Part shown: in pieces, positions 5,407 through 55,588 of the stretch
How the letters are laid out: the number at the start of each line of letters is the position of its first letter
Position numbering within the stretch: position 1 is the first letter of the stretch
Source: Naegleria gruberi
Taxonomy: Eukaryota
Strand: one strand, 5' to 3'
Length of the DNA: 64,000 nt
Assembly (NCBI GenBank): GCA_000004985.1
Contig: GG738886.1
Program-made: the position numbers and the translations under genes
Notes under the pieces: generated by a model
What the model saw: the letters and a program-made list of their open reading frames with translations, nothing else
What the model was told of the DNA's origin: nothing
The model's database searches: none

Positions 5407-7242
5407 TTAATGTAAATGGAATGTTCCACCTCCATATGCATAATTCATTCTCTCACGCAACAGAATATCAAATTCCTCTTGACTATTGATGTGTGAAAAG
5501 TCAGCAATCAATCCATGATATTTAAGAGCTGCCATTCGATACTCTTCATCATGATTCAAATCAATAGCCAAATAAAACGCAGGGGATAATTTCAATGCCT
5601 TCATAACAAACTCTCTATTTTCTATCAGATTCTTTGGAATTTGTTGATAGGAGAATTTGTATTGATTCACTTTCATGGACGAAAGCAAAATTTCTTCATT
5701 GTCTGTAAGAAAGTTTGGAACTTGAGTGAAAACTACCTTTCTTTGCAATATCAAGTCAGCGATCTTCTGTTTGAAATCCAAATCTGAAACAAGTGATTCT
5801 GCTAGACTAATATTTGTGAAATTACCGAGGTCTATAACTTTCAAAACGAAATCCTTATCATTCTTGAAGAATGGAAAATATTCAATGCAATTCTGATTTA
5901 CCATAACACATTCCATAGCAAACTGACTGTCTTTTAACAAATCTTCCTTTGCAAATCTCATTAAAGAAGCATCATTTCGAATAACTTCCAAAATTCCCTT
6001 TCTATCATTTTGTTTGAACAACAATTCGAAATCTTTTCGTTTGTTTGGTTTTTTCACTTCCTCTTCTTCAATAAACTCATCATTCTCTTCATAATTACCC
6101 ACCATAAACATGTCATTTGAATCGTCTTCCAATTGTAAACTTTCTGATTTTTCATTTTCTTTAAAATTCTCAAAACTTTCATCCTTAATTAGTTCAGCAG
6201 GAATGTAAGGAAGAATTTTACAATCATGATTGAGTGCTTTCAATATAAATTGCTTATTATTTCTCAATTCTGATTGTTCAAGTAAGCTTGGATCATGTTG
6301 CAAACAGTTCAATAAGATTTCTTCATCATTGTTTCTAATACTTTCAGATAGATATCTGAAAGCTAAATAATTAATTTTCACTAATTGAAGGCAAAAATCT
6401 CTATCTTGCAATAAATCTATACCTTTAACATGATCCAGGAGGGTTATGTTGACTGGAGCAATTGCCAAAATTATTTCTCTATCTTTCTTCAATTCGTCTT
6501 TCATATTTGAATTCGAATAGACATTCACATTTCTTTTAATTGCTTCTAAAACCACATGTTTATCCTTAAAAAGATAAGAAAGTGAAGTGTTGTAATGCTG
6601 AACTAGATATTCTACAGCTATTTCAGGATATCTTTCGAATACAGATTCTTCCAAAGTTATTGAATCTGATTTGACAGCTGCCATAATAATTTCAGGATCA
6701 TTTTTCAAATCCTCACTAGCATACAGATAAGCCCACCCATCATTCTTCACAGCAGATAAAACAATTCTCTTGTCTGATTGACATTCCTCTGACAGAAACG
6801 CCAAATGTCTTCCTTGAAATTGAACGAGCATGTGAGCAATGTCAAGATCTGATTTAGAAGTTTCTGAGGATTGAAGGAGAGGATCGCAGAACCATTCCTT
6901 GAATGCCAGTTCGAATAATGATTTTCTGTTCAAAATAAATGGTAAATCTCTGACAAGATTCGAATATTTTGGACGAATTGATTTCATTGCTTGAATCACC
7001 AAATAATCATCAAATAAGAATTCAATAGGAAGAAAGTTGACTTGCAACAGTGAATTTGAAACTCTTCTCTCACGTTGTTCTTTAATATATTTCACTTTAG
7101 CTTCAATCCATTTCGAATAACCTTTTCCCAGTTGCGTAAACTTTTCTTTCAACTTTATCCGAAAGGAATTTTGATTATTTGATAGATAAAACGGTTCTTC
7201 CACCAGAATGAGAATGCACTGCTGCTCATGATCTTGTGACAT
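5407..7242 (-). CDS. Repeat protein of 611 aa with DUF4116-like repeats of roughly 35 aa.
   Basis: Single ORF. Recurrent motif of the form [RK]xxxEI(V/I)LxAVKxxGxALxYASxxLxNDxEI. An acidic low-complexity linker lies mid-protein. The gene at 60212..62089 is a paralogous architecture. Confidence 0.55.
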   Translation of the reverse strand: MSQDHEQQCILILVEEPFYLSNNQNSFRIKLKEKFTQLGKGYSKWIEAKVKYIKEQRERRVSNSLLQVNFLPIEFLFDDYLVIQAMKSIRPKYSNLVRDLPFILNRKSLFELAFKEWFCDPLLQSSETSKSDLDIAHMLVQFQGRHLAFLSEECQSDKRIVLSAVKNDGWAYLYASEDLKNDPEIIMAAVKSDSITLEESVFERYPEIAVEYLVQHYNTSLSYLFKDKHVVLEAIKRNVNVYSNSNMKDELKKDREIILAIAPVNITLLDHVKGIDLLQDRDFCLQLVKINYLAFRYLSESIRNNDEEILLNCLQHDPSLLEQSELRNNKQFILKALNHDCKILPYIPAELIKDESFENFKENEKSESLQLEDDSNDMFMVGNYEENDEFIEEEEVKKPNKRKDFELLFKQNDRKGILEVIRNDASLMRFAKEDLLKDSQFAMECVMVNQNCIEYFPFFKNDKDFVLKVIDLGNFTNISLAESLVSDLDFKQKIADLILQRKVVFTQVPNFLTDNEEILLSSMKVNQYKFSYQQIPKNLIENREFVMKALKLSPAFYLAIDLNHDEEYRMAALKYHGLIADFSHINSQEEFDILLRERMNYAYGGGTFHLH

Positions 7243-12456: not shown

Positions 12457-13485
12457 ATGTCATCATCAGCTGCATCTTTTCAATCCCTATCTCCAGAACT
12501 AATCTATAGAGTGATTGGCTTTTTAGATTCCTTCTCCGTCTTTCGAATGGAAAGACTAAACTCTAAATTCCACAAGGCACTCACTCGGAATAAACAAGTT
12601 GATCGTTTAATTTATGGAAAATTAATATTGAACGAATTGAAAATATTACCGACATGGTGGAAGCTTCAGTCATCATGTGAAAAAATGATTGATGAATTAT
12701 ATGAAAAGAATCAAGATTGGAAAAATTGGTTGACTGAGGAAAGTTTATTAGATTTACTATTGAATGGGAAGAATGATAGGTTTAGGATAGTTTTGAGGGA
12801 TTTTTATGTGGTTCCATTTAGTCTAGTTCAGGAAAATGTGGAGGGGAGGTATAGTACCGATGTTAGTAGAGATTATTTTAGAGTTGGAGGTGTTGTGGAA
12901 TTTACAAAATGGAAACCATGTGGATTGATTGAGAAATTGTTACAAAATTTCAAGATAACTGAGTATTTTCAAACAAAAATTCATAGCATGCTAATGTTTT
13001 TCTCTATTTGTGATTGGTTTGCTGAGAGGAATGAAATCACTACCATTAGATTGGTTTTGAATGACAATTCCATTTTGAGGAAATTACCTGGAGAGTTTTT
13101 CTTGTGTTTTGTAAAGGATCAAAAAATGGAAAATGTTCAGAATATTAATACTTTCAAAAGTAGCTCACCAATAATTGATTTCAAATTGTTTAGAGAGCAT
13201 TGTACAAAGTATGAAACCTGTAGTATTGATACAATCTTTGAGAAAACTAAAAATCCTCCTTATGGTATGAAACCAAATGCAGCAACTGTAGTGGAATCAC
13301 TCAAATCAGAGCTATACGAATTTGACTCTTACTCTATTGATTGGAGTGCGACTATTGCTGTTAGTACTCAAGATTGGTGCAGTTACTGGTCTAGTGGACG
13401 TGAGTGGTGGGGATGTTATGCCATGACTTCATTCAATTCAAAAGAGTGTGCATTTATTGTTGCAACAGCATCTTGTTCTGATTAA
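12457..13485 (+). CDS. F-box-like domain protein, 342 aa.
   Basis: The N-terminal LSPELIYRVIGFLDSFSVFRMERLNSKF matches the F-box consensus (LPxEIxxxIxxxLD). The rest is unassigned. Confidence 0.45.
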   Translation: MSSSAASFQSLSPELIYRVIGFLDSFSVFRMERLNSKFHKALTRNKQVDRLIYGKLILNELKILPTWWKLQSSCEKMIDELYEKNQDWKNWLTEESLLDLLLNGKNDRFRIVLRDFYVVPFSLVQENVEGRYSTDVSRDYFRVGGVVEFTKWKPCGLIEKLLQNFKITEYFQTKIHSMLMFFSICDWFAERNEITTIRLVLNDNSILRKLPGEFFLCFVKDQKMENVQNINTFKSSSPIIDFKLFREHCTKYETCSIDTIFEKTKNPPYGMKPNAATVVESLKSELYEFDSYSIDWSATIAVSTQDWCSYWSSGREWWGCYAMTSFNSKECAFIVATASCSD

Positions 13486-13598: not shown

Positions 13599-14039
13599 TT
13601 AGTCGTTAGGGTACACCATAGTTGATCTGACAGGTTGTAATGGTAATTCAACTTCTCCACATTCACAAGTAGCATCAACCAAGTTATCTTGTTTCTCAGA
13701 GGTTTCAATCAATGTATTCAAAATACGTTTAGCCATTTCTGATGGAATATCTAGTGAAACTAGGTCAGAAATTTCAAGAGTTAGCATTATATAACCGTTT
13801 AGTCTATCCTTCTTGAGCTGTTTAATGTATTTCTTGTCGAAACCTTTGTATTTAAGCCACTTATAGAGTGATTTGTAATTCCACTTGTAGACAGGTTTCT
13901 GTTCAATTTTCTTTAATTTTCTTTCCTTTCTTCTTTCAAAGTAACCTTTCTTTTCTTCTACTTTCATCTTTTCCCGTGGAGAGTTAGTTTCTGTTGCTCT
14001 GGACAGAGGTTGTTTACCTCTAAACAAGATAGAAGACAA
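13599..14039 (-). CDS. Small basic protein with a SAM-like (sterile alpha motif) C-terminal domain. The 5' exon or exons may lie upstream.
   Basis: WNYKSLYKWLKYKGFDKKYIKQLKKDRLNGYIMLTLEISDLVSLDIPSEMAKRILNTL resembles a SAM fold pattern. The N-terminus is lysine-rich. The start is uncertain. Confidence 0.35.
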   Translation of the reverse strand: MSSILFRGKQPLSRATETNSPREKMKVEEKKGYFERRKERKLKKIEQKPVYKWNYKSLYKWLKYKGFDKKYIKQLKKDRLNGYIMLTLEISDLVSLDIPSEMAKRILNTLIETSEKQDNLVDATCECGEVELPLQPVRSTMVYPND

Positions 14040-15103
14040 TGAATGTCTCTTACTTATTACATTAGTTGTAGGTTGTGGTTCTAAAGGTTGTTGTTGTGCT
14101 GATCAATCTTTCGCAGAGTGTCTTGTTCAATACTCTGATTTGACCTACTCTTTTTAGAGAGTGTATGTACAAAGTCCATTTGATGATGTTCTTCTTGATG
14201 ATTAACACAGTCAGCCGAAGTCATCTTATTAATCTTCTTCTTATTACTAGTATTGTTAAGAATAATATTAAAACTTTTTTGTTTTTAAAATTAAATCTTC
14301 TTGTTCAGGTCTTCTACTACAACACAATAAGAAGGCTTGTTTGCCAATGATGATTTTCTTTTTAATGATGAATTAACCGATGATGAGAACGGAGGCTTTT
14401 TTGTTTTTCAATAATTCATATGGAATATCTGAACGCAAAGTTATCGAATCGTCCAGCTTTTCATCGCGCAATAAAAAACCGCTGCGCTATTATAGAGATT
14501 TTTTTGGATAAATACACCTCAATCAAACATGGCGCCAAAATAAAATGTACCATTTCTGTGGAGATGTCAAAGTCAGTATGATGTGTTCATTGAATTTGGT
14601 ATTGTGAAGGTAAAATGGTTGTTTAAGGAATATAAAGAGAAATGCATGAAATTATTTTAAATTTCAATAATGATAAAAACCTTACTTTATTTCTTTGTAT
14701 TGCTTGTCAAGTTTTGTTTTTTGAAATCTGACCTTCACACACAAAGACCTAATTCATTGGAGAATGAAATTGTAAAATGAGTTTTATCATTCAGTAATAA
14801 AATCCTCTAAAATTGTTAAATAGAAATCCAGAACATGAAAGCGGAGAAAGGTGAGTAAGCCAGTGTGAGAGAATTTAACCTGAACCAATTAATTCATGTC
14901 CTAAATGTATTATTATATTCCAGTGTATCTTCAAATCTCTGAATGTAACCTTACATTGGTAATTGCTATCTCTCTTGCCAATCAAAGAGTTGCCTTGATG
15001 GTCAATTTACTTTCATCCAATTTTCACAATTTCAAACATTTTGAAATGGAAAATATGAAATGGAATCAAAAGGAATTGCAATCAAAAAACCAAATTCAAA
15101 AAA

Positions 15104-16390
15104 ATGCTTTCAAACAATGAGTATTATTTTCTTTTACCCGATGAGATGATCACCAACATTATAGATTATTTGGATCCATTCACGATCGTTTCCTGTTCCA
15201 TGCTAATTTCCAAACAATTTTATCGAATTTCTCACCAAGAATTTCAATCCCTTGAAATTTCATCACACCACGACAGAGTAATCCACTATCAATTCATTCA
15301 TAAATGTTCAAGTTTTAGGACACTCACTAGTTTAGATTTGAGAAATTGTAGCATTGAAGTGGAAGATTTTACAAAATGGGTAAAGAGTGGAAATTTGAAG
15401 GGATTGAAATGCTTAGTAGCTCCAAACGATGGACAATTGGTTTTAGAAATTGGTAACATTTACAATGAGTGTATGGAAGAATTGAAGAAGGGATCAGAAG
15501 TGGATTATACCCTTCCCAACTTGAAGAGTATTCAGGTGGAAAATGTTTGTCGATTGGATTTGATTAGTCCTGTGGAATATTCTGAACAAATGACAAAGAC
15601 TCCTGTTGGGGAAATTAAAAGTAGCCGTGGTGAATTATTTGGAAAGAAAAAGGCTTTGAGCACATTAGTGGAGGGGGTTTGTTTGCCAATGGCATTTCCA
15701 CAATTATTCACAGGATCCAGACGTCCTCCAAGACAGTACCTGTTTTTTGGACCTATGAATAGTGGAAAAACGATGATATTAGATGCATTGCATGAATCAA
15801 TGCCTTCCAATTTAATTGAGCCATTCTCAATTAATTACTATGATAAGGAAAGAGCTATCCGAATACTGTTCTCAATTGCAAGGTTGTTTGGGAAATATGT
15901 ATTTTCCATATTGACCTACCATCAAAACCTGTTCCAGGAGGTGGAAACAGAAGGGGAGTTCAATAGGAGAGCTCTAACAGAACTGGTCATACAATTAGAT
16001 ACAAGACCTGAAGAAAATTTAATTATAATTATGTCCTCGAATAGACCAACAACTATTAATACCATCATTAGAAGAAGGCTCTATCCACGAATTTACATCA
16101 AACTCTTAACAGGAGATGATCTCAACATGTTTGTGAAATATCAACTTGAGGGTAGATTTGGAAGTAATAGTTTTACCACAAGTCAAATTGATCAAATTAC
16201 CAAACTTTGTGAAGGATATTCGCCCTTTGAGATTGAGCAAATGGTGAAATCGATCAGAAATGAAAATATCAAGGGGACAAAATTAATTGATTGTTTTAAA
16301 GAGATTATTGAGAAGGCACCACCCCTTAATACAGAGCAAGAAATAATGGAAATTGAAAGCTTTGCAGAAAATTTCGCCAGCGAATATTAG
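15104..16390 (+). CDS. Protein with an N-terminal F-box-like motif fused to an AAA-type ATPase module that has a degenerate Walker B.
   Basis: F-box-like LPDEMITNIIDYLDPFTIV. Walker A GPMNSGKT. Sensor-1-like IIIMSSNRPTTI. An arginine-finger region RRRLYPRIYIKLL, and LCEGYSPFEIEQM resembling the AAA lid. No clear hhhhDE Walker B. Confidence 0.55.
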   Translation: MLSNNEYYFLLPDEMITNIIDYLDPFTIVSCSMLISKQFYRISHQEFQSLEISSHHDRVIHYQFIHKCSSFRTLTSLDLRNCSIEVEDFTKWVKSGNLKGLKCLVAPNDGQLVLEIGNIYNECMEELKKGSEVDYTLPNLKSIQVENVCRLDLISPVEYSEQMTKTPVGEIKSSRGELFGKKKALSTLVEGVCLPMAFPQLFTGSRRPPRQYLFFGPMNSGKTMILDALHESMPSNLIEPFSINYYDKERAIRILFSIARLFGKYVFSILTYHQNLFQEVETEGEFNRRALTELVIQLDTRPEENLIIIMSSNRPTTINTIIRRRLYPRIYIKLLTGDDLNMFVKYQLEGRFGSNSFTTSQIDQITKLCEGYSPFEIEQMVKSIRNENIKGTKLIDCFKEIIEKAPPLNTEQEIMEIESFAENFASEY

Positions 16391-17805: not shown

Positions 17806-17878
17806 TGCCGACACCAGGGATCGAACCAGGGACCTTAAGATCTTCAGTCTTACGCTCTCCCAACTGAGCTATGTCGGC
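17806..17878 (-). tRNA. tRNA-Phe (anticodon GAA).
   Basis: Reverse complement reads GCCGACATAGCTCAGTTGGGAGAGCGTAAGACTGAAGATCTTAAGGTCCCTGGTTCGATCCCTGGTGTCGGCA. It has a 7-bp acceptor stem, a D-arm AGCTCAGTTGGGAGAGC, an anticodon loop CTGAAGA, a TΨC arm GGTTCGATCC, and 73 nt without encoded CCA. Confidence 0.85.
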
Positions 17879-17938: not shown

Positions 17939-19042
17939 TTATTCTGAATATTTTTGCTTTGAAAAATCTTTAGAGTGGAACCAAGGAATCATTACGCTCA
18001 CCTGTTTCTGATATAGTGAAAAAAGTGGTTTGGTTTCAGACATTTTTCTCTCTACCCAGGGAACACTGATGAATTGAAATAAGCAAGTAACTAGAATTGG
18101 TCCCCAAATGAAATAAATAAATGACTGGTCAATTTGGGAATTTTGTAAAGAACAAGCAAAGAGGAAAATTGACCACCAAAATCCAACTTCTCCAAAATAA
18201 TTTCCATGTCTAGTGTAGGCCCAAACACCCTCTACAAGTACTTGTCTATTATTTGTTCTGGTTGCCAAGTGTCTATGGAGAGTAACGTCAGCAGCATGTG
18301 AAATCCAAACACAAAATAGTGAAAATAAAGCACTGGAAATGAATGACAATAATTGAACGAATGTCATTGAGTGCTCTGCAATTTGGTTTGAATTGAAAAA
18401 GGTAGCGAAGAGAGGAATCATTGCAAAGAAAACAATAAGTGTTGGGAATAAATGAATTCCAAGGAATGAAATAATCCAATAAGGAATATTCCATCTAGAA
18501 TTATTTTCAATCTTAATTCCAAACCATCCCAGATACGAAAGCGATTTAATTCTCAAAGCTCTATATCGCCAATCTTCTTGTCCCTTTGTTAATATATTTC
18601 CAGCACTATCATCATTATCTGGTCTTGTAAAAAAGTTCTTTGTCAATCTGTATGCCCAAACATTTAAACACATGAACATGATCAGAAATACCCAAGAAAA
18701 TGATCCATTACTAAGTTGACTTGTATCTTGTCCTAAATAATTCATGTAAATTCTACTGATAAATCTATCGGAACAAAAGTAATCAATAAATAAAAGTAAA
18801 ATTGCAAATGGTGGAAATATACTCCAATACGGATCATAAATACTACTATTATTGTAATAGATTGATCCTAAGAATGTTAATATTGTCAAAATGATATCAA
18901 TGTAAAATATCAGCCAAAGCATTGGCTCTGATAAAAGTGCATGATGAGTGGAAATGAAATGCTCAACAATGAGATGAACCATTTTTTTATGCTGCTCATC
19001 CAAATCATGGTTGTTGCATTTCCACGGCTTTCGTGTTGGCAT
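17939..19042 (-). CDS. Polytopic membrane protein of the DUF1295 / steroid-5-alpha-reductase-like family.
   Basis: Multiple hydrophobic helices. The C-terminal motif AYTRHGNYFGEVGFWWS resembles the [ST]RHPNYFGE signature of this family. Confidence 0.45.
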   Translation of the reverse strand: MPTRKPWKCNNHDLDEQHKKMVHLIVEHFISTHHALLSEPMLWLIFYIDIILTILTFLGSIYYNNSSIYDPYWSIFPPFAILLLFIDYFCSDRFISRIYMNYLGQDTSQLSNGSFSWVFLIMFMCLNVWAYRLTKNFFTRPDNDDSAGNILTKGQEDWRYRALRIKSLSYLGWFGIKIENNSRWNIPYWIISFLGIHLFPTLIVFFAMIPLFATFFNSNQIAEHSMTFVQLLSFISSALFSLFCVWISHAADVTLHRHLATRTNNRQVLVEGVWAYTRHGNYFGEVGFWWSIFLFACSLQNSQIDQSFIYFIWGPILVTCLFQFISVPWVERKMSETKPLFSLYQKQVSVMIPWFHSKDFSKQKYSE

Positions 19043-20081: not shown

Positions 20082-20196
20082 CAGAAGACAATTTTTTTAA
20101 TTAATTTAAATTTAAATTAATTTATTAATAATTTGTTTAATATTTTTGGCGCGAAAGAAGTGTTCGACCATCCACAAGAATTTAGAAAAAAAAGAC
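20082..20196. promoter_or_regulatory. Short AT-rich divergent intergenic region, a candidate bidirectional promoter, between the minus gene starting at 20081 and the RFWD3-like first ATG at 20197.
   Basis: 115 bp with about 90% A+T and quasi-palindromic AATTAATTTAAATTTAAATTAATTTATTAATAATT. Head-to-head gene starts. Confidence 0.3.
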
Positions 20197-22896
20197 ATGA
20201 TGAACCTACACTTTATTCGGAGGGGACTTTCTCCTCATCAGAACCAACAACATACTTCTGGTAGTGCGAGTAATAGCCAACAATCAAATAATAGCAAACA
20301 AACACCAAATAATAGCATGAGTAATACGAGTAATATGAATTATAGTACAAACCAACATTCTAATTCTTCTTCCTCATCTTGTAGGAAGAGAACTTTGGAG
20401 TATAGTATCGATCTGGATGATTTACCTTCTCCTCCATCCTTATTTTCCTCTGCTTCTTTAATAGCCACAATGAATGCAGTTACCATGATGAATACTAATG
20501 AAACTCTAAAACAATCATCACCCGAAGACGATCAAAAAGCTTCAATAGAGAATGTTATCATGTCCGATGATCCAAATGAAGAACAGCAACAAGAAGAAGA
20601 GGAAATAATCATTTCTCAAACTGATGATGAACCAATCCTTAAAACACAATTCCCACCCTTTTCAATAGTAACAAGTTTGAAAAAAAATGATTCATTAGGG
20701 GATAGTGAGAGTGAGGATGATGGAGAATATGAAGATTCTAATGATGAAGATGAATTGAGGGAGTTTTCAATTAAACAAGTCGAACAATCGACTAAGAAGA
20801 GAAAATTAAATATTGTAAATAAGGAGGATAATAGAAAATCGGAACAGTTAGAGGATAATTCAAAACCAATCATGCTCTTGACTCAATTACCTCCAATGTC
20901 AACATGTGAGGCAAAACAAGAAGACATTACTGTAGTGGTAGAACACCCTATTGATGAAGAAGAGTTTCTAAATAATGCAACAGTCCCTCAGGAGAATGAG
21001 ATGATCAAATCTTTGGAGGATAATATTATTGAGGAACTTGCATTTACTCCAGATCAAGAAAATAACATTGAGAATTTATCCCAAATTCCAAAATTGGAAA
21101 ATAATAGGCAATTAGAGGAAGATTTTGATATTCATGTTGACTTACACGAGTTGGATTATGAATTTTCGAATAATACAGAACCAGCCCAAAAACCAGAAGA
21201 ATCAATTCAAGCTAAGAAGGTTCTTGTTGACATTTCCGTTCAAACTGATAACAGTCTCCTTCCAAAACCTGTACAAATTGTAAATAGCGATCCAAATAAT
21301 ATCTGTTCCATTTGCTTAAGTGCATGGAGCAGTACTGGACTACATCAAGTGTGCTGCCTTTCGTGTGGCCATCTTTTTGGTAAGAATTGCATTGAGAAAT
21401 GGTTGAAAAAAAACTCTACATGTCCAAAATGTAAAAAATCTGCAGATAGAAGTCATATTAGATTACTCTATGTGGACAATATTCATGCCATAGATACACA
21501 AAAAGTTGAAGATTTAGAGAGTAGATTGGAAGCAGAAGTTAAAGCACGAAAAGAGCTGGAGGTAATCAAAAATGGTCTCGAATTGAGAATTAAAATGCTT
21601 TTAGAGCAGAAAGGAGGTGAGAATTTTGCAGAGAACCCTTCATCTTCCCCCCCTAACAACAAGGGTGTTCAACACCGTTCAAGCTCAGAATCAGACACCA
21701 ATAAGAGGAAATCATTGATTCAACGATCGTTAGAACTTGCAGAAAGAAAAAAGAAAGAGTTTGATTTAATGAATTCTGAAGAGGAGGAAGTTACAAGAAA
21801 CATTGTCTGTTACAATGGGAAATCAAAAAATCAACAATCCAGAAAAAAGAACACCTATCTATATGGATCGAATGGAGCTAATAAGCTTCTATTCAATACT
21901 CCACTTGAAAATTCTGGCTTGATAGAAATTAGCAACAATCAAGTATTTATATCTTTTGAAAGAAGGGATAAAATGTGTGGATTTTATGTTGCTGGATTGG
22001 AAAGATTAATGAGTAATCCATCCATAATTAATCAGGCAAGGAAAGTAATGCATAATTCACCAATATCAGATATCAAACCACTCTATCTTCTTTCACCCAA
22101 CAATTCTAAAGGTTACTCTATTGAATATATGCAATCTAACCTTATTTTAACTTCCTCACAAGATAAATCAATGAGAATTACTGATCTACGACAAGGAACA
22201 GCGGACTCTATATGTTTTTTCCCTTATCTATCAACCAATAGAGAAGGTTTATCAACATCTATTACTTGTTGTGAATGGAATAGAACCAATTCAAACTATT
22301 GTTTTGCAGGACTATCATCAGGTTCAATTCTATGTTACGATACTAGAAAACCAAGTGAACCTTTTTTAAATACTGGGGATCATTCATGTTCTCCACATAC
22401 AATGTTTCACATACCCAACAAGGGCCTAGTAGTAGGCTCAAATAATTCCATTACCTACTATGATGAAAATCAATATGGTTATACAAAGGGACATAATTTA
22501 TTTAATAAGGAAGTTTCTTCATTCTACTTTAATACTTCAAATGATACCCTTTTATTCACATGCAGGGAATCATCAAAATCATCTCAATTACATATATTCA
22601 CTCTTGAAAGCAATCAACATGTGAATTGTTTAGAGAGTATCAGTATCAATCACAAAGGACCAAAACTAGGAAGGCCATATGTCTCAGATAATGGTCAAAA
22701 CTTTCTTTCCACAATAGCAGTTCCAAAGCCAGATGATTTTTCTGTAGAAATTTGGAAATCTCAAACAGATCAGGACTATTCATTTAAGGGTGATATCAAA
22801 TTACAATCTAGCACTGAAATTATTCAAAGTTGTGCCCTGTCATTTAATAATCTGTTTGTTGTTACAAAAGACAATCTTAGTGCATACTTGGTTTAA
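20146..22896 (+). CDS. RING-finger, coiled-coil and WD40-like E3 ligase with RFWD3-like architecture. The first ATG is at 20197.
   Basis: RING-H2-like CSICLSAWSSTGLHQVCCLSCGHLFGKNCIEKWLKKNSTCPKCK. An acidic S/N-rich N-terminal half. A coiled-coil stretch EDLESRLEAEVKARKELEVIKNGLELRIKML. A C-terminal region with WD-like beta-propeller character. Confidence 0.55.
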   Translation: MARKKCSTIHKNLEKKDMMNLHFIRRGLSPHQNQQHTSGSASNSQQSNNSKQTPNNSMSNTSNMNYSTNQHSNSSSSSCRKRTLEYSIDLDDLPSPPSLFSSASLIATMNAVTMMNTNETLKQSSPEDDQKASIENVIMSDDPNEEQQQEEEEIIISQTDDEPILKTQFPPFSIVTSLKKNDSLGDSESEDDGEYEDSNDEDELREFSIKQVEQSTKKRKLNIVNKEDNRKSEQLEDNSKPIMLLTQLPPMSTCEAKQEDITVVVEHPIDEEEFLNNATVPQENEMIKSLEDNIIEELAFTPDQENNIENLSQIPKLENNRQLEEDFDIHVDLHELDYEFSNNTEPAQKPEESIQAKKVLVDISVQTDNSLLPKPVQIVNSDPNNICSICLSAWSSTGLHQVCCLSCGHLFGKNCIEKWLKKNSTCPKCKKSADRSHIRLLYVDNIHAIDTQKVEDLESRLEAEVKARKELEVIKNGLELRIKMLLEQKGGENFAENPSSSPPNNKGVQHRSSSESDTNKRKSLIQRSLELAERKKKEFDLMNSEEEEVTRNIVCYNGKSKNQQSRKKNTYLYGSNGANKLLFNTPLENSGLIEISNNQVFISFERRDKMCGFYVAGLERLMSNPSIINQARKVMHNSPISDIKPLYLLSPNNSKGYSIEYMQSNLILTSSQDKSMRITDLRQGTADSICFFPYLSTNREGLSTSITCCEWNRTNSNYCFAGLSSGSILCYDTRKPSEPFLNTGDHSCSPHTMFHIPNKGLVVGSNNSITYYDENQYGYTKGHNLFNKEVSSFYFNTSNDTLLFTCRESSKSSQLHIFTLESNQHVNCLESISINHKGPKLGRPYVSDNGQNFLSTIAVPKPDDFSVEIWKSQTDQDYSFKGDIKLQSSTEIIQSCALSFNNLFVVTKDNLSAYLV

Positions 22897-51613: not shown

Positions 51614-54600
51614 ATGTCAATCAGACAAAAACTCTTCCCTCAGCGAAAGCGAATGTCTGGTATTTTTGAATCAGAGCACTCGCCAACTGACGTGGACAGC
51701 CTAAAGAAAAATAGACGAGTTTCGAACGCTTCAGATATGATGTTGAGTCATCCTCCAATCGATCAGCACACCTCCAACCTTCTCAACACTAGTCTCTGTA
51801 ATAATCCCTCCATGTCAGAAGATTCACTCTCTCGAAAAGTTACCATTGGATCATCGACTTGTATTGATAGTAGTACTGGTAGCAGCGAGGTTGATTCATC
51901 ACCAAATAATAATGGTAATACACTCGATATCAAGAGCAGTAGAGGGAAACAAGAGCAATCATCCACAGTGATGATCGCTACTGCTCCTCCTGCTGGTTCT
52001 GATGCGGTAAATGATGATGTTGCTTCTTCTGGCTCATCCAAAAACAGCCTAAAAAACGAAGAGAAAAATGCTTCATTGTTGCCACAACAAGACTCATCAT
52101 CAACAAGTATAAAATCGGACTCATCTTCTCTCAATAACAACAACAATAATAATAATATTAGCAATAATAGTTCAGTATCATCATCATCATCCGCCTCAGT
52201 AGTAGATAATATTGAAGACGATATGACAAAAAACAGATCACTCACATATGCTGTTGGTGATTCCAAATTTAAGGGAATTGGCCCTAATGATGTTAAATCA
52301 CCACAATCACAGAATGCTACTACAGTTTCAACCTTTCTTACCGATGAACAACCATCTACTATTTCTCCAACAACTGCTATGAATAATAGATTCCAAGGAA
52401 TCAGTTCAAAAGACGCCAAACCTACAACCACAACAAGTACTACATCCCAACCAAAGCATGCTAATCCTCCACCAATACAAACAACATCATCCGTATCAAA
52501 TAATGGTAAATCATCAACTCCTACAAATAACAAGCCAGCATCATCAAAACCAGTAGAAAAACCAAGAGTTTCTCAAGACCTTTCAAGAGAAGCAGCTTTA
52601 AAGAAGAAAGCAACAGGAAAAAGCTTAACAATGCCATCTTCATCACAAAACAAAATTGTAGTGATTGGTTGTAGAGGTATTGGTAAATCCGAAATGGTGT
52701 ACAAGTTTTTACACAATGAAATTCGTTTTTATCATCAATTAAAGAAAGATAAGGCTCATCTACTTGAAGAACTTAAAGGTACTTTGGCTTCCGAACAAAA
52801 GACTATTAACGAGAAAAAAACACAATCAGCGTCCAACCAACAGAATGCTACTACCACACCAACAAATAATTTACCATCATCATCGACATCATGCACAATA
52901 ACACCTAAAACTGAACCTTCTCCAACAAAAGTTCAAGACAATTTACCAATAGATCCAGGTGCAATAGTGGAAAATGAAATTGAGTGTGCTCTCAAACCAT
53001 CAGACTCTTTAGAAGTTAGAAAACTGAAATTACTTTTAATGAAGAAAGACCAAGAAATTAAAAAACAAAAAGAAGAAATGGAAAATACCATTCAAGAACT
53101 TTCAAGTATGTGGAAAAAGGAGAGAACAGAAAAGGTCGAACTTGAAGAAGAGTATGTCGAAAAGGAAAATGAGTTGAATCATTATATTTCAGTTGTTGAA
53201 CAGATTCATCACTTGATTAATTTGGATCCAAAGTCAGATGAAATTCCAGAAGCAATTTCTTTCAAACTTCCTGAAAATCCTAATAATGGAATTTTGAGTC
53301 CAAACAGAAAGAGAAAGACCAGTGCCCATGCTGGAGTTATTGCTGCAACACCAAAACAAAATTTATCAACACTTCCACCATCTACTCCAAATGTTGTAAC
53401 ACCAATGAATAATAGAAATAGTCACAATAATAACCACAACGACGACTTCTTTGATCTCCAAAACTTCAACCCTAAAGACCCTGTACCAGTAACACCAATG
53501 TCTTCCCAAAGAAAGGCAAGACATGTCAGAACGGAAAGTACTTTCCAAAAGCTAAGAACAAACCAATATCAAGTTGTTGCTCAAGATTTAAGAAAATCAA
53601 TTGAAGAAGATATTGACGCAGATGTTTCTGATCCAGAAACAAACAGCATTGCTTTAGCTGCAAACGAAACTGATGAGACCACGGACGAAATTAACATGTT
53701 CTTGGCAGATTTTAATAGAACCGAGGAATCCAATTTTGTATTGACAAACAATCCATCCATGAATAGAATTCAAGCTCCACAAGTGAAGAATTCCCTTTCC
53801 AATTCGGAAGATAGTGCTGGAGATGAAGATACCGAGAATGATTATTCAGAAAGTAGTGATATTACTTCTGTTTCATCAACTGCTAGTTCTAACCATTCCC
53901 TTGTTAAAGCTCAATCAACAATGGATGTAAGAGGTGATAGAGGACAACCAGTAGTAGCTAACAGTTTAATTTTACCAAATGTTGGAAAGTCAAAATCTCC
54001 AACAATTGTACAATCTACAGATTACAAGTATGACGAGAACTTGTTTGTAAAATTATTAACCCCAAGTTTCCACCTTACTGAGGGTTTGAGAAAGTTTAAT
54101 ACCGGTAAACCAAAAGATGCTCTCAAGTATCTGATAGAAAATGCAATTTTGCCTGATCCAGAAGCTGGGTTAACTGAAACTAAGGAAAAACCAGAGGCAG
54201 TAATTTCTAGATTTATGGCCATTGCTGATTCTTTGAATAAGGAAAAACTCGGAGAATTTTTGGGAGATGAAAGGAATAATGTCTATCTGGAAGAATTTGT
54301 CAGATTCCATGTTCAAGAGCTGTACAATGAAGAAAAGAAACAAGGTGATGACACTTATTTGAGCAAGTTTGATCGTGCTCTTCGTTCATTTTTCATTCAA
54401 TTCAAATTACCAAAAGAAGGACAACAAGTTACCAGAATTGCAGAGGTCTTTGCCAATGTGTATAGTGAAAATAACAAGAATGATGGAGAACTCAATGGTA
54501 ATGGTGATGCTTGCTATTTACTTGTATGTTCAATGCTCATGGTGAATACACAATTACACAATCCAATTGCGAATATCAAGTTATCGAGAGAGCAATTTGT

Positions 54601-55588
54601 AGAATTATTCTCACAATTCAAAGATATTAACATGAACTTTATTGGATCATGTTACGATACCATCGCAAGAAATGCTATGGTTCTCTATGATGAAGAAGTT
54701 GATTCTGAGGATAGAACAAATTTCGAGTCAGACGATCAGATCGATTTATTCTTCAAATGCTACAAACCAAGAGCAGCATTGCCAGCTTCAGCTAGTGATT
54801 CTCAAATAACAGTTCACAGAGCTATCAAATCTCTGAGTTTGGATGGAGACAAAGTTAAGGAATTGATGGAAAGTGCTATTACATTCTTCTTCAAAGCCAA
54901 AGTTATACATGATGGAGTCATTAATAGAATTCAAATCAAGGACTCTGATCCAAATCTCGAGTTAACAACCACAGAAACTATTACTGAGTCTGGTTTGACA
55001 ATAACAAAAGTCAAGCTCAGGGATCCAACAGAAATTAATAATGAGGCAAAGACTGGTAATTACTTTATCTGTGCTTATAGTGTTGCTGATCGCACAAGCT
55101 TTTTGATTGTTGAGCATATCATCAAAGCAATTAGAAAGGCCAAGAGAAGAGAAAGAAAGGCAGAAAAGAAGAAGAATAAGTCTTCCAAGACAAAGCCTCA
55201 ATATAGCACCTTAACTGGTTCAGTTACCGAGGAATTACTACAAATGCTCAATGGAGATGATAGTGACTACAATAATGACAAGTTTATGGTTCTTGTGGGC
55301 TGTAAAGCTGATGTTCCAGATGACCAAAGACAAGTTTCAAAGAAAGAAGGTGGTGAACTAGCTCTCAAGTACAGTATTCCATTCTTTGAAGTTTCTAATG
55401 GAGATATGTTTGGAATACGGAAAGTTTTCTTGAATGCTATCGATTCCATCAAGAGACAAAATGCTTCATACGTGGATGCAGTCAAACAAATGAATGACTT
55501 CCACAAGAGAATGAATATTGCAAAGCAAAACAAGAAAGGCCAAATAGATGTTAACTCTCTTGCTATACTGCCAAAGTGTTACATTTAA
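51614..55588 (+). CDS. Protein of 1324 aa. It has a Ser/Asn-rich N-terminus, a Ras-like G1 P-loop segment, a coiled coil, a Sec7 (ArfGEF) domain and a C-terminal Ras-like G-domain remainder.
   Basis: G1 KIVVIGCRGIGKSEMVYKF. Sec7 core FKLPKEGQQVTRIAEVFANVY and YLLVCSMLMVNTQLHNP. The C-terminus YFICAYSVADRTSFLIVEHIIKAIRKAK...KFMVLVGCKADVPDD...LALKYSIPFFEVSNGDMFGIRKVFLNAIDSIKRQ is colinear with Ras beta4 through alpha5, that is G4 NKxD and G5 ETSAK. Confidence 0.7.
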   Translation: MSIRQKLFPQRKRMSGIFESEHSPTDVDSLKKNRRVSNASDMMLSHPPIDQHTSNLLNTSLCNNPSMSEDSLSRKVTIGSSTCIDSSTGSSEVDSSPNNNGNTLDIKSSRGKQEQSSTVMIATAPPAGSDAVNDDVASSGSSKNSLKNEEKNASLLPQQDSSSTSIKSDSSSLNNNNNNNNISNNSSVSSSSSASVVDNIEDDMTKNRSLTYAVGDSKFKGIGPNDVKSPQSQNATTVSTFLTDEQPSTISPTTAMNNRFQGISSKDAKPTTTTSTTSQPKHANPPPIQTTSSVSNNGKSSTPTNNKPASSKPVEKPRVSQDLSREAALKKKATGKSLTMPSSSQNKIVVIGCRGIGKSEMVYKFLHNEIRFYHQLKKDKAHLLEELKGTLASEQKTINEKKTQSASNQQNATTTPTNNLPSSSTSCTITPKTEPSPTKVQDNLPIDPGAIVENEIECALKPSDSLEVRKLKLLLMKKDQEIKKQKEEMENTIQELSSMWKKERTEKVELEEEYVEKENELNHYISVVEQIHHLINLDPKSDEIPEAISFKLPENPNNGILSPNRKRKTSAHAGVIAATPKQNLSTLPPSTPNVVTPMNNRNSHNNNHNDDFFDLQNFNPKDPVPVTPMSSQRKARHVRTESTFQKLRTNQYQVVAQDLRKSIEEDIDADVSDPETNSIALAANETDETTDEINMFLADFNRTEESNFVLTNNPSMNRIQAPQVKNSLSNSEDSAGDEDTENDYSESSDITSVSSTASSNHSLVKAQSTMDVRGDRGQPVVANSLILPNVGKSKSPTIVQSTDYKYDENLFVKLLTPSFHLTEGLRKFNTGKPKDALKYLIENAILPDPEAGLTETKEKPEAVISRFMAIADSLNKEKLGEFLGDERNNVYLEEFVRFHVQELYNEEKKQGDDTYLSKFDRALRSFFIQFKLPKEGQQVTRIAEVFANVYSENNKNDGELNGNGDACYLLVCSMLMVNTQLHNPIANIKLSREQFVELFSQFKDINMNFIGSCYDTIARNAMVLYDEEVDSEDRTNFESDDQIDLFFKCYKPRAALPASASDSQITVHRAIKSLSLDGDKVKELMESAITFFFKAKVIHDGVINRIQIKDSDPNLELTTTETITESGLTITKVKLRDPTEINNEAKTGNYFICAYSVADRTSFLIVEHIIKAIRKAKRRERKAEKKKNKSSKTKPQYSTLTGSVTEELLQMLNGDDSDYNNDKFMVLVGCKADVPDDQRQVSKKEGGELALKYSIPFFEVSNGDMFGIRKVFLNAIDSIKRQNASYVDAVKQMNDFHKRMNIAKQNKKGQIDVNSLAILPKCYI

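Follow-up and report, generated by a model that had tools for sequence, protein, structure and literature searches.

The gene NAEGRDRAFT_51149 of Naegleria gruberi lies on contig GG738886.1 of assembly GCA_000004985.1, within the 64,000-nucleotide stretch of DNA analyzed here (hereafter, the window). We consider it somewhat more probable than not (a probability of roughly 0.55) that this is a functional, lineage-restricted gene, which encodes an F-box protein of the FBXO type with a catalytically dead AAA module of FIGL1/spastin/katanin/Vps4 descent, and we infer that the protein is an adaptor that works through Skp1 and the SCF (Skp1-Cul1-Rbx1) ubiquitin ligase. F-boxes are the handles by which proteins are plugged into SCF ubiquitin ligases. 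An earlier note on this DNA, made from the sequence alone, had proposed an F-box-like motif fused to an AAA-type P-loop module without a clear Walker B motif, and the analysis below bears out both parts and the loss.

The open reading frame (ORF) is uninterrupted and encodes 428 amino acids, with an in-frame stop located 16 codons 5' of the first ATG. From Met15 onwards, its product is 100 per cent identical to NAEGRDRAFT_51149 (EFC41299.1, XP_002674043.1, UniProt D2VP54), which is located on a 358-kb scaffold and is publicly annotated only as a "predicted protein". Because of this match, the window is N. gruberi nuclear DNA. Its G+C content is 29–36 per cent, and its genes are compact, eukaryotic, and mostly intron-free-looking. 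A giant-virus origin, suggested by the AT-rich, F-box-rich context, was ruled out by the perfect match to the N. gruberi scaffold and by the ordinary eukaryotic neighbors. Neither the 414-aa nor the 428-aa protein was on record in assemblies when looked up by exact sequence.

The C-terminal part of the protein is, by sequence and predicted fold, a complete AAA module (aa ~177–428). The Pfam AAA model (PF00004) matches the full-length protein with 33.4 bits (cut-off, 21.2; E = 7.3e-8); in NCBIfam, AAA matches (CdvC and CDC48, among others) were found only far below threshold. In a phmmer search against the PDB, the region from aa 177 to ~400 best matched Caenorhabditis elegans FIGL-1 (4l15; E = 5.5e-24) and spastin (6.5e-20), followed by human FIGNL1 (2.6e-19), VPS4B (4.7e-18), and katanin (~3e-15). 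An AlphaFold2 (AF2) model of the module, built with a 70-sequence alignment, has a predicted local distance difference test (pLDDT) score of ~90 across aa 180–428, and its lid helices (337–352, 359–368, 374–385, and 393–404) score 85–97; a single-sequence run (mean pLDDT of 32) was of no use. Foldseek matched the model to FIGNL1 (8r64), FIGL-1 (4l16), Vps4 (6bmf), spastin (6p07), and katanin (6ugd), with E-values of 1e-15 to 1e-12 and TMt of 0.65–0.78, in alignments of ~290 columns that span the whole AAA chains of FIGNL1, Vps4, and spastin. Given the sequence matches to FIGL-1, spastin, VPS4B, and katanin, the Foldseek fold, and the C-terminal helix, the module descends from the Vps4/spastin/katanin/fidgetin 'meiotic' clade, with fidgetin-like and spastin members as its nearest relatives. 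The AAA-type module proposed earlier is therefore upheld by the Pfam, FIGL-1, AF2, and Foldseek matches alike, and a lack of any AAA hit, which the earlier note had named as grounds for abandoning its proposal, was not what the Pfam search returned.

The catalytic site of the module is degenerate. When the protein is aligned with its 150 best relatives (the source of all conservation values given here), the Walker B residues D270, E271, and D273 (each 95 per cent conserved) are replaced by L, T, and H, so that the hhhhDE pattern is absent. The stretch VFSILTYH lies opposite VIFIDEID in three independent alignments (with C. elegans FIGL-1 4l15, Drosophila spastin, and the Vps4-like protein P0002). 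In the AF2 model, which has the AAA fold, the predicted beta-strand 265–270 stops exactly at the expected DE site, and no acidic residue is found at the strand end. The Walker B stretch is identical in an allele from a second strain (described below), so that its loss is not a sequencing error. A compensated frameshift was rejected as the origin of the loss, since the alternative frames contain no DE motif. An unrecognized intact DE pair, the other outcome that the earlier note had considered fatal to its proposal, did not turn up either: VFSILT occupies the Walker B position in all alignments.

The degeneration extends to other motifs, and the earlier note, which had singled out Walker B, understates it, as far as can be judged from the alignments. 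In Walker A, Lys222 and Thr223 are kept, but Pro218 (98 per cent conserved) is replaced by Met and Gly219 (invariant in the 150 relatives) by Asn; the resulting GPMNSGKT fits the general GxxxxGK[ST] pattern and departs from the GPPGxGK(T/S) of the clade. The K-(W/Y)-x-G of pore loop 1 is absent; in its place is N-Y-Y-D, with a deletion of ~3 residues, in which one aromatic residue is kept and the Lys and Gly are lost. In pore loop 2, R279 (85 per cent conserved) is replaced by E. In contrast to these losses, all sensor-1 residues are kept (family conservation of 98 per cent for N313, 87 per cent for R314, and 96 per cent for P315), as are the arginine fingers R324 (97 per cent) and R325 (95 per cent) and also R288, R289, T292, and E293. 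The motifs quoted in the earlier note are thus all present (GPMNSGKT at aa 216–223, MSSNRP at aa 310–315, and RRRLYPRI at aa 323–330), and its view that the sensor-1 Asn and the arginine fingers are retained holds in the 150-relative alignment.

Because neither the Walker B pattern nor the pore loop 1 pattern by which family membership was judged is present, the sequence indicates that 'pseudo-AAA' is a more fitting name for the protein than 'ATPase'. With neither a catalytic Glu nor a Mg-binding Asp, the module as predicted cannot hydrolyze ATP, and its degenerate pore loops make substrate threading unlikely. Nucleotide binding is probably still possible, as the Walker A Lys and Thr are kept. 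The intact Walker A Lys/Thr, sensor-1 Asn, and arginine fingers would also suit an ATPase that is still active by means of non-canonical catalytic residues. We regard such an enzyme as extremely improbable, because L, T, and H have taken the place of the two Walker B acids and of the Asp that comes after them, no acidic residue ends the predicted strand and no DE is encoded in the alternative frames, pore loop 1 is truncated, and the pore-loop-2 Arg has become Glu.

Overall, the protein keeps 29 of the 51 near-invariant positions (those conserved in at least 90 per cent of the alignment), or 57 per cent, versus a median of 98 per cent in the relatives, and six of the 22 lost positions are in or beside Walker B. 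Among the 150 best relatives, almost none has a comparable loss of Walker B in its main AAA cassette. Degenerate motifs were seen in a protein of Euplotes crassus (P0144, 304 aa; GPKGSGKE, no DE), in an ENA metagenome protein (P0071, 304 aa), and in the second AAA cassette of P0011. From these sequences, inactivation of the AAA module in the FIGL1/spastin/katanin/Vps4 clade appears to have arisen independently in other protists, without an F-box.

The loss of so many near-invariant positions raises the possibility that NAEGRDRAFT_51149 is a recently duplicated FIGL1/spastin-like gene that is drifting toward a pseudogene, in which case the F-box-like N-terminus and the motif losses would have no function. 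The lack of an orthologue among 1.84e9 representative proteins and the bare 'predicted protein' annotation would fit such decay. However, the 90 per cent cluster of the protein holds a second member (P0152). It is encoded by a 1578-bp contig from an ENA metagenome (ERZ929261; hereafter, L001), which was assembled independently and is 97.9 per cent identical in DNA. L001 carries the same uninterrupted F-box-linker-AAA ORF with an identical dead Walker B, which excludes both sequencing error and assembly chimerism. The two coding sequences (CDSs) have 13 differences, of which eight are synonymous and five are non-synonymous, and no indels, whereas the adjacent 270 nt of non-coding DNA upstream have 11 substitutions (4 per cent) and two indels. 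By the Nei–Gojobori method, the synonymous and non-synonymous divergences of the two alleles are dS = 0.032 and dN = 0.0049 (dN/dS = 0.15), and so few non-synonymous changes are unexpected by chance (binomial test; P-value = 0.0013); the AAA half alone has three differences (P-value = 0.11), which leaves the test with little power. Additionally, K222, T223, N313, R324, and R325 are kept despite ~70 per cent overall divergence. We therefore consider a decaying duplicate very unlikely. The gene as a whole is, on these two alleles, under purifying selection, and the shared architecture of the second-strain allele, together with the dN/dS of 0.15, establishes that it is neither a pseudogene nor an assembly chimera.

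The F-box of NAEGRDRAFT_51149 is very probably real. In a Pfam scan of the full-length protein, F-box-like (PF12937) scored 21.3 bits (E = 2.4e-4; cut-off, 24.3) and F-box (PF00646) scored 19.7 bits (E = 8e-4; cut-off, 20.5). When aa 1–60 were scanned alone, the two models scored 25.2 and 24.1 bits, respectively (E ~1e-5), both above the curated cut-offs, in line with the F-box-like motif of the earlier note. The isolated N-terminus of the second-strain allele scored 27.1 bits with F-box-like and 24.3 bits with F-box. The sequence of aa 11–39, LPDEMITNIIDYLDPFTIVSCSMLISKQF, which opens with LPDEMITNIIDYL (aa 11–23), fits the canonical LPxE...L(D/x)P...(V/I)SK.(W/F) pattern and has both the LPxE start and the hydrophobic heptad pattern that ends in (V/I)(S/C)(K/R)x(W/F). 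AF2 places helices at 13–22 and 25–51 in this region, with pLDDT <50.

The complete F-box is encoded only if translation starts at 15104 or further upstream. The public model (XP_002674043.1, 414 aa) starts at Met15, which removes the LPDE opening that the ATG at 15104 restores; the model thus begins 14 codons later than it should, and the F-box is concealed. The poly-A run at 15091–15103, just 5' of the ATG, differs in length by one base between the window and L001 (an indel at 15097). As a result, an ATG still farther upstream (MESKGIAIKKPNSKK-) is in frame in the second strain, where it extends the protein by 15 residues, and is out of frame in the window. Either the true start codon is ambiguous, then, or one of the two assemblies contains a homopolymer error.

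The N-terminal 176 residues could instead be a lineage-specific targeting domain that replaces the MIT or other N-domains of the clade and matches the F-box models by chance, which would make the protein an SCF-independent pseudo-AAA regulatory subunit, such as a poison or scaffold of a severing enzyme or of Vps4. The sub-threshold full-length scores would agree with this, as would the lack of N-terminal homologues in both the word-index and phmmer searches and the lack of a confident N-terminal AF2 model (pLDDT <50 throughout the 176 residues). Yet, in both alleles, two F-box models match the same residues and exceed their cut-offs when the domain is scanned by itself, the canonical pattern is present, and a neighboring gene has a related F-box-like N-terminus, and we consider a fortuitous match unlikely. 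The neighbor, a 342-aa ORF at 12457–13485 (+), begins with LSPELIYRVIGFLDSFSV, which is 29 per cent identical to the F-box of NAEGRDRAFT_51149 (pairwise E = 1e-4); it reaches only 13 bits with Pfam F-box, and no other domain was detected in it. These two ORFs contain the only F-box-like motifs in the window. The F-box-like part of the neighbor may belong to a divergent subfamily of Naegleria F-boxes, or the fusion gene may have acquired its F-box locally from it.

About 130 residues separate the F-box from the AAA domain. For this linker (aa 47–176), homologues were detected neither in a word-index search with the N-terminal 177 aa, which returned no match, nor in a phmmer search of the PDB with the N-terminal 174 aa, which gave only chance matches (E ~1) to ATP13A2. 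The linker contains a weak leucine-rich repeat (LRR)-like signal (LRR_4, 18.6 bits, E = 0.0022, cut-off 27; LRR_6, E = 0.2) in a region of AF2 pLDDT <50. Because of this signal, the AAA domain may not be the only candidate for a substrate-binding part.

As far as the searched libraries indicate, the gene is an orphan restricted to the N. gruberi lineage. In a HMMER scan of 1.84 billion representative proteins, the protein itself was the only match below 1e-30; the next matches, from 2.7e-24, cover the AAA part only, at ~30 per cent identity, and no orthologue was found. None of the 150 best AAA matches is another F-box–AAA fusion, and a regular-expression scan of them for F-boxes found none. 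We looked up the source of 20 of these 150 matches and found insects, Dictyostelium, Anaeramoeba, Euplotes, a plant, and metagenomes, with no Naegleria paralogue among the 20. A word-index search with the full protein returned only itself and one Vps4-like protein, and a scan of JGI metagenome contigs gave 132 pattern matches and no relatives. In the searchable literature, we found no paper that names NAEGRDRAFT_51149 or an F-box–AAA architecture. Protists commonly shuffle domains in this way.

The likeliest role of the protein would be that of an SCF substrate receptor or a Skp1-tethered adaptor, in which a non-hydrolyzing AAA module serves purely for binding or co-assembly. The F-box would dock on Skp1 and so join the SCF ligase. 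The AAA module would probably bind nucleotide, and would neither hydrolyze it nor thread substrate. In AAA enzymes of this clade, arginine fingers reach into the active site of the neighboring subunit, and the C-terminal helix holds the oligomers together. The expected loss of hydrolysis and threading, set against the retention of the nucleotide-phosphate Lys/Thr, the arginine fingers, and the C-terminal helix, suggests a static binding or co-assembly module, akin to a natural Walker B 'trap' mutant. Such a module might join or cap oligomers of an active paralogue (the N. gruberi spastin, for example); alternatively, it might bind one of the clients of these enzymes. Either way, the active paralogue or its client would be brought to the ubiquitin ligase. 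The canonical N. gruberi spastin (D2VS83) severs internalized axonemes, and centriole elimination in this organism involves K48/K63 ubiquitination (PMC11772885). Plausible partners therefore exist, but nothing ties them to NAEGRDRAFT_51149.

A more specific version of this role, to which we give only a slim chance, is an SCF ligase whose naturally 'trapped' AAA receptor co-assembles, through its arginine fingers and C-terminal helix, with an active spastin, katanin, or FIGL1 hexamer. The enzyme would then be marked for degradation, or its client (tubulin, axonemal or centriolar proteins, or RAD51) would be presented for ubiquitination. If so, an unfoldase or severing machine would be coupled directly to ubiquitin ligation while Naegleria rapidly builds and dismantles its microtubule organelles. 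Skp1 could also be a partner outside a cullin ligase and act as an assembly factor for the pseudo-AAA, as with Rcy1, Ctf13, and RAVE in yeast. Non-SCF F-box proteins are established, and our results fit cullin-dependent and cullin-independent roles equally; nonetheless, most characterized F-box proteins act in SCF ligases and nothing positive favors the alternative, so that we consider it quite unlikely.

Several points weigh against a functional adaptor with a dead AAA module. Both F-box scores are just under the Pfam cut-offs when the full-length protein is scanned. The N-terminal 176 residues lack a confident model and have no detectable homologues, and an LRR substrate-binding part is possible there. 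G219N and the lost Mg-coordinating Asp may abolish nucleotide binding altogether. The selection test compares two near-identical alleles with 13 substitutions, just three of which fall in the non-significant AAA half. Because no orthologue is known, deep conservation does not back a function. Finally, every functional step (Skp1 binding, nucleotide binding, and oligomerization) is an inference.

If the proposed role is correct, NAEGRDRAFT_51149 encodes an SCF adaptor that recruits its partners via a dead unfoldase-type AAA domain, and it would join a lengthening list of pseudo-enzymes that have been put to new use as binding modules. The combination of an F-box with a dead AAA module is absent from the 150 AAA relatives that rank highest in the 1.84-billion-protein library and was not encountered in the searchable literature. 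The role could be relevant to the way in which AAA enzymes that sever or remodel microtubules, or the clients of these enzymes, pass to the ubiquitin system during the amoeba-flagellate transition, although its reach would be limited by the confinement of the gene to the N. gruberi lineage and by the conjectural functional steps. The features of the gene are listed in Table 1.

Table 1. Features of NAEGRDRAFT_51149, with positions in the window.
Feature	Position	Strand	Basis
Complete single-exon CDS, 428 aa + stop, NAEGRDRAFT_51149	15104..16390	+	ORF list; upstream in-frame stop; match to XP_002674043.1
F-box, aa 11–46, opens with LPDE	15134..15241	+	Pfam F-box-like and F-box on isolated N-terminus
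Met15, start codon of public gene model	15146..15148	+	P0001 (414 aa) equals ORF aa 15–428
Weak LRR-like stretch, aa 72–104, LTSLDLRNCSI..., within linker aa 47–176	15317..15415	+	LRR_4 below cut-off
AAA large (alpha/beta) subdomain, aa 177–336	15632..16111	+	phmmer vs PDB; Pfam AAA; AF2 pLDDT ~90
Walker A variant GPMNSGKT, aa 216–223 (family GPPGTGKT)	15749..15772	+	Column frequencies
Pore loop 1 region, INYYDKER (family ...SKW/YxGEGEK)	15830..15853	+	Gapped alignments
Walker B position, YVFSILTYH replacing SVIFIDEID (D270L, E271T, D273H)	15896..15922	+	Alignments; AF2; second strain
Sensor-1 strand MSSNRP, aa 310–315, Asn313 kept	16031..16048	+	Column frequencies
Arginine-finger triplet R323-R324-R325, kept	16070..16078	+	Column frequencies
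AAA lid (small helical) subdomain, aa 337–405, GYSPFE replacing GYSGxD	16112..16318	+	AF2 helices; column data
C-terminal helix, aa 411–424, typical of Vps4/spastin/katanin/fidgetin clade	16334..16375	+	AF2 pLDDT ~90; Foldseek

Other genes in the window were also noted. A small ORF of 146 aa (13599–14039, -), which separates the two F-box-like genes and runs in the other direction, has a weak SAM match just below cut-off (SAM_3, E = 4e-4). A tRNA-Phe(GAA) gene (17806–17878, -) occupies a short gap that separates two protein-coding genes, and directly downstream of it is a gene for a DUF1295/steroid-reductase-like multi-pass membrane protein (17939–19042, -; E = 2.5e-22). A few kb from the F-box–AAA gene, a second ubiquitin-system gene (20146–22896, +) encodes a 916-aa RING-finger and WD40 protein that resembles the E3 ligase RFWD3 (WD40_RFWD3, E = 1e-14; zf-RING_2, E = 8e-9). 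Farther away are a 1324-aa ORF (51614–55588, +) with a Sec7 domain, a guanine nucleotide exchange factor (GEF) for Arf (E = 9e-36), and a C-terminal partial Ras-family GTPase (E = 4e-13), which is an unusual GEF–GTPase fusion, and a gene for a 611-aa protein with at least six DUF4116 repeats (5407–7242, -; E = 2e-53).

Among known systems, FIGL1/FIGNL1 and spastin, which form the 'meiotic clade' with katanin p60 and Vps4, are the best matches in both sequence and fold. With FIGL1 and spastin, the Naegleria protein shares a single AAA cassette, the pre-AAA segment (P195, P199, F202, G204, and R206), the sensor-1 Asn, the paired arginine fingers, the lid, and the C-terminal helix. Unlike them, it lacks the Walker B Asp and Glu, has a GPMNSGKT P-loop and a shortened pore loop 1, and carries an N-terminal F-box in place of an MIT, FRBD, or microtubule-binding domain. 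Given the missing acids, the altered P-loop, the short pore loop, and the 57 per cent of near-invariant positions kept, it is a descendant of this family and presumably not a working unfoldase or severing enzyme.

Engineered Walker B E-to-Q trap mutants (of Vps4, spastin, katanin, and Msp1), like natural pseudo-AAA subunits, still bind ATP and assemble, and they retain their partners with no turnover; the Msp1 E193Q mutant reportedly forms mixed oligomers. As in these proteins, the Walker A site and the arginine fingers of the Naegleria protein are kept and the catalytic acid is gone. Unlike the trap mutants, this protein has also lost the Asp that coordinates Mg, and its pore loops have degenerated, which makes both nucleotide binding and pore-mediated trapping uncertain.

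With FBXL proteins such as Skp2, the Naegleria protein has in common an F-box followed by a Cys-containing LRR-like stretch (LTSLDLRNCSI), but it has at most one weak repeat pair, and no LRR solenoid is predicted. FBH1/FBXO18 is an F-box protein fused to an active UvrD-type SF1 helicase, whose RecA-like SF1 folds are unrelated to AAA. In both FBH1 and the Naegleria protein, an N-terminal F-box is joined to a P-loop NTPase module rather than to repeats of the LRR or WD40 type. The NTPase module of the Naegleria protein is, however, of the AAA type and predicted to be catalytically dead, so that the two are analogous rather than homologous. FBH1/FBXO18, as an SCF subunit with an NTPase domain, is the nearest conceptual precedent. 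F-box proteins with C-terminal domains other than LRR or WD40 make up the FBXO class (PMC12475580). The Naegleria protein belongs to this heterogeneous class, and since FBXO proteins with such 'other' C-terminal domains, FBH1 included, are well known, its combination of domains is unusual but not unprecedented in kind.

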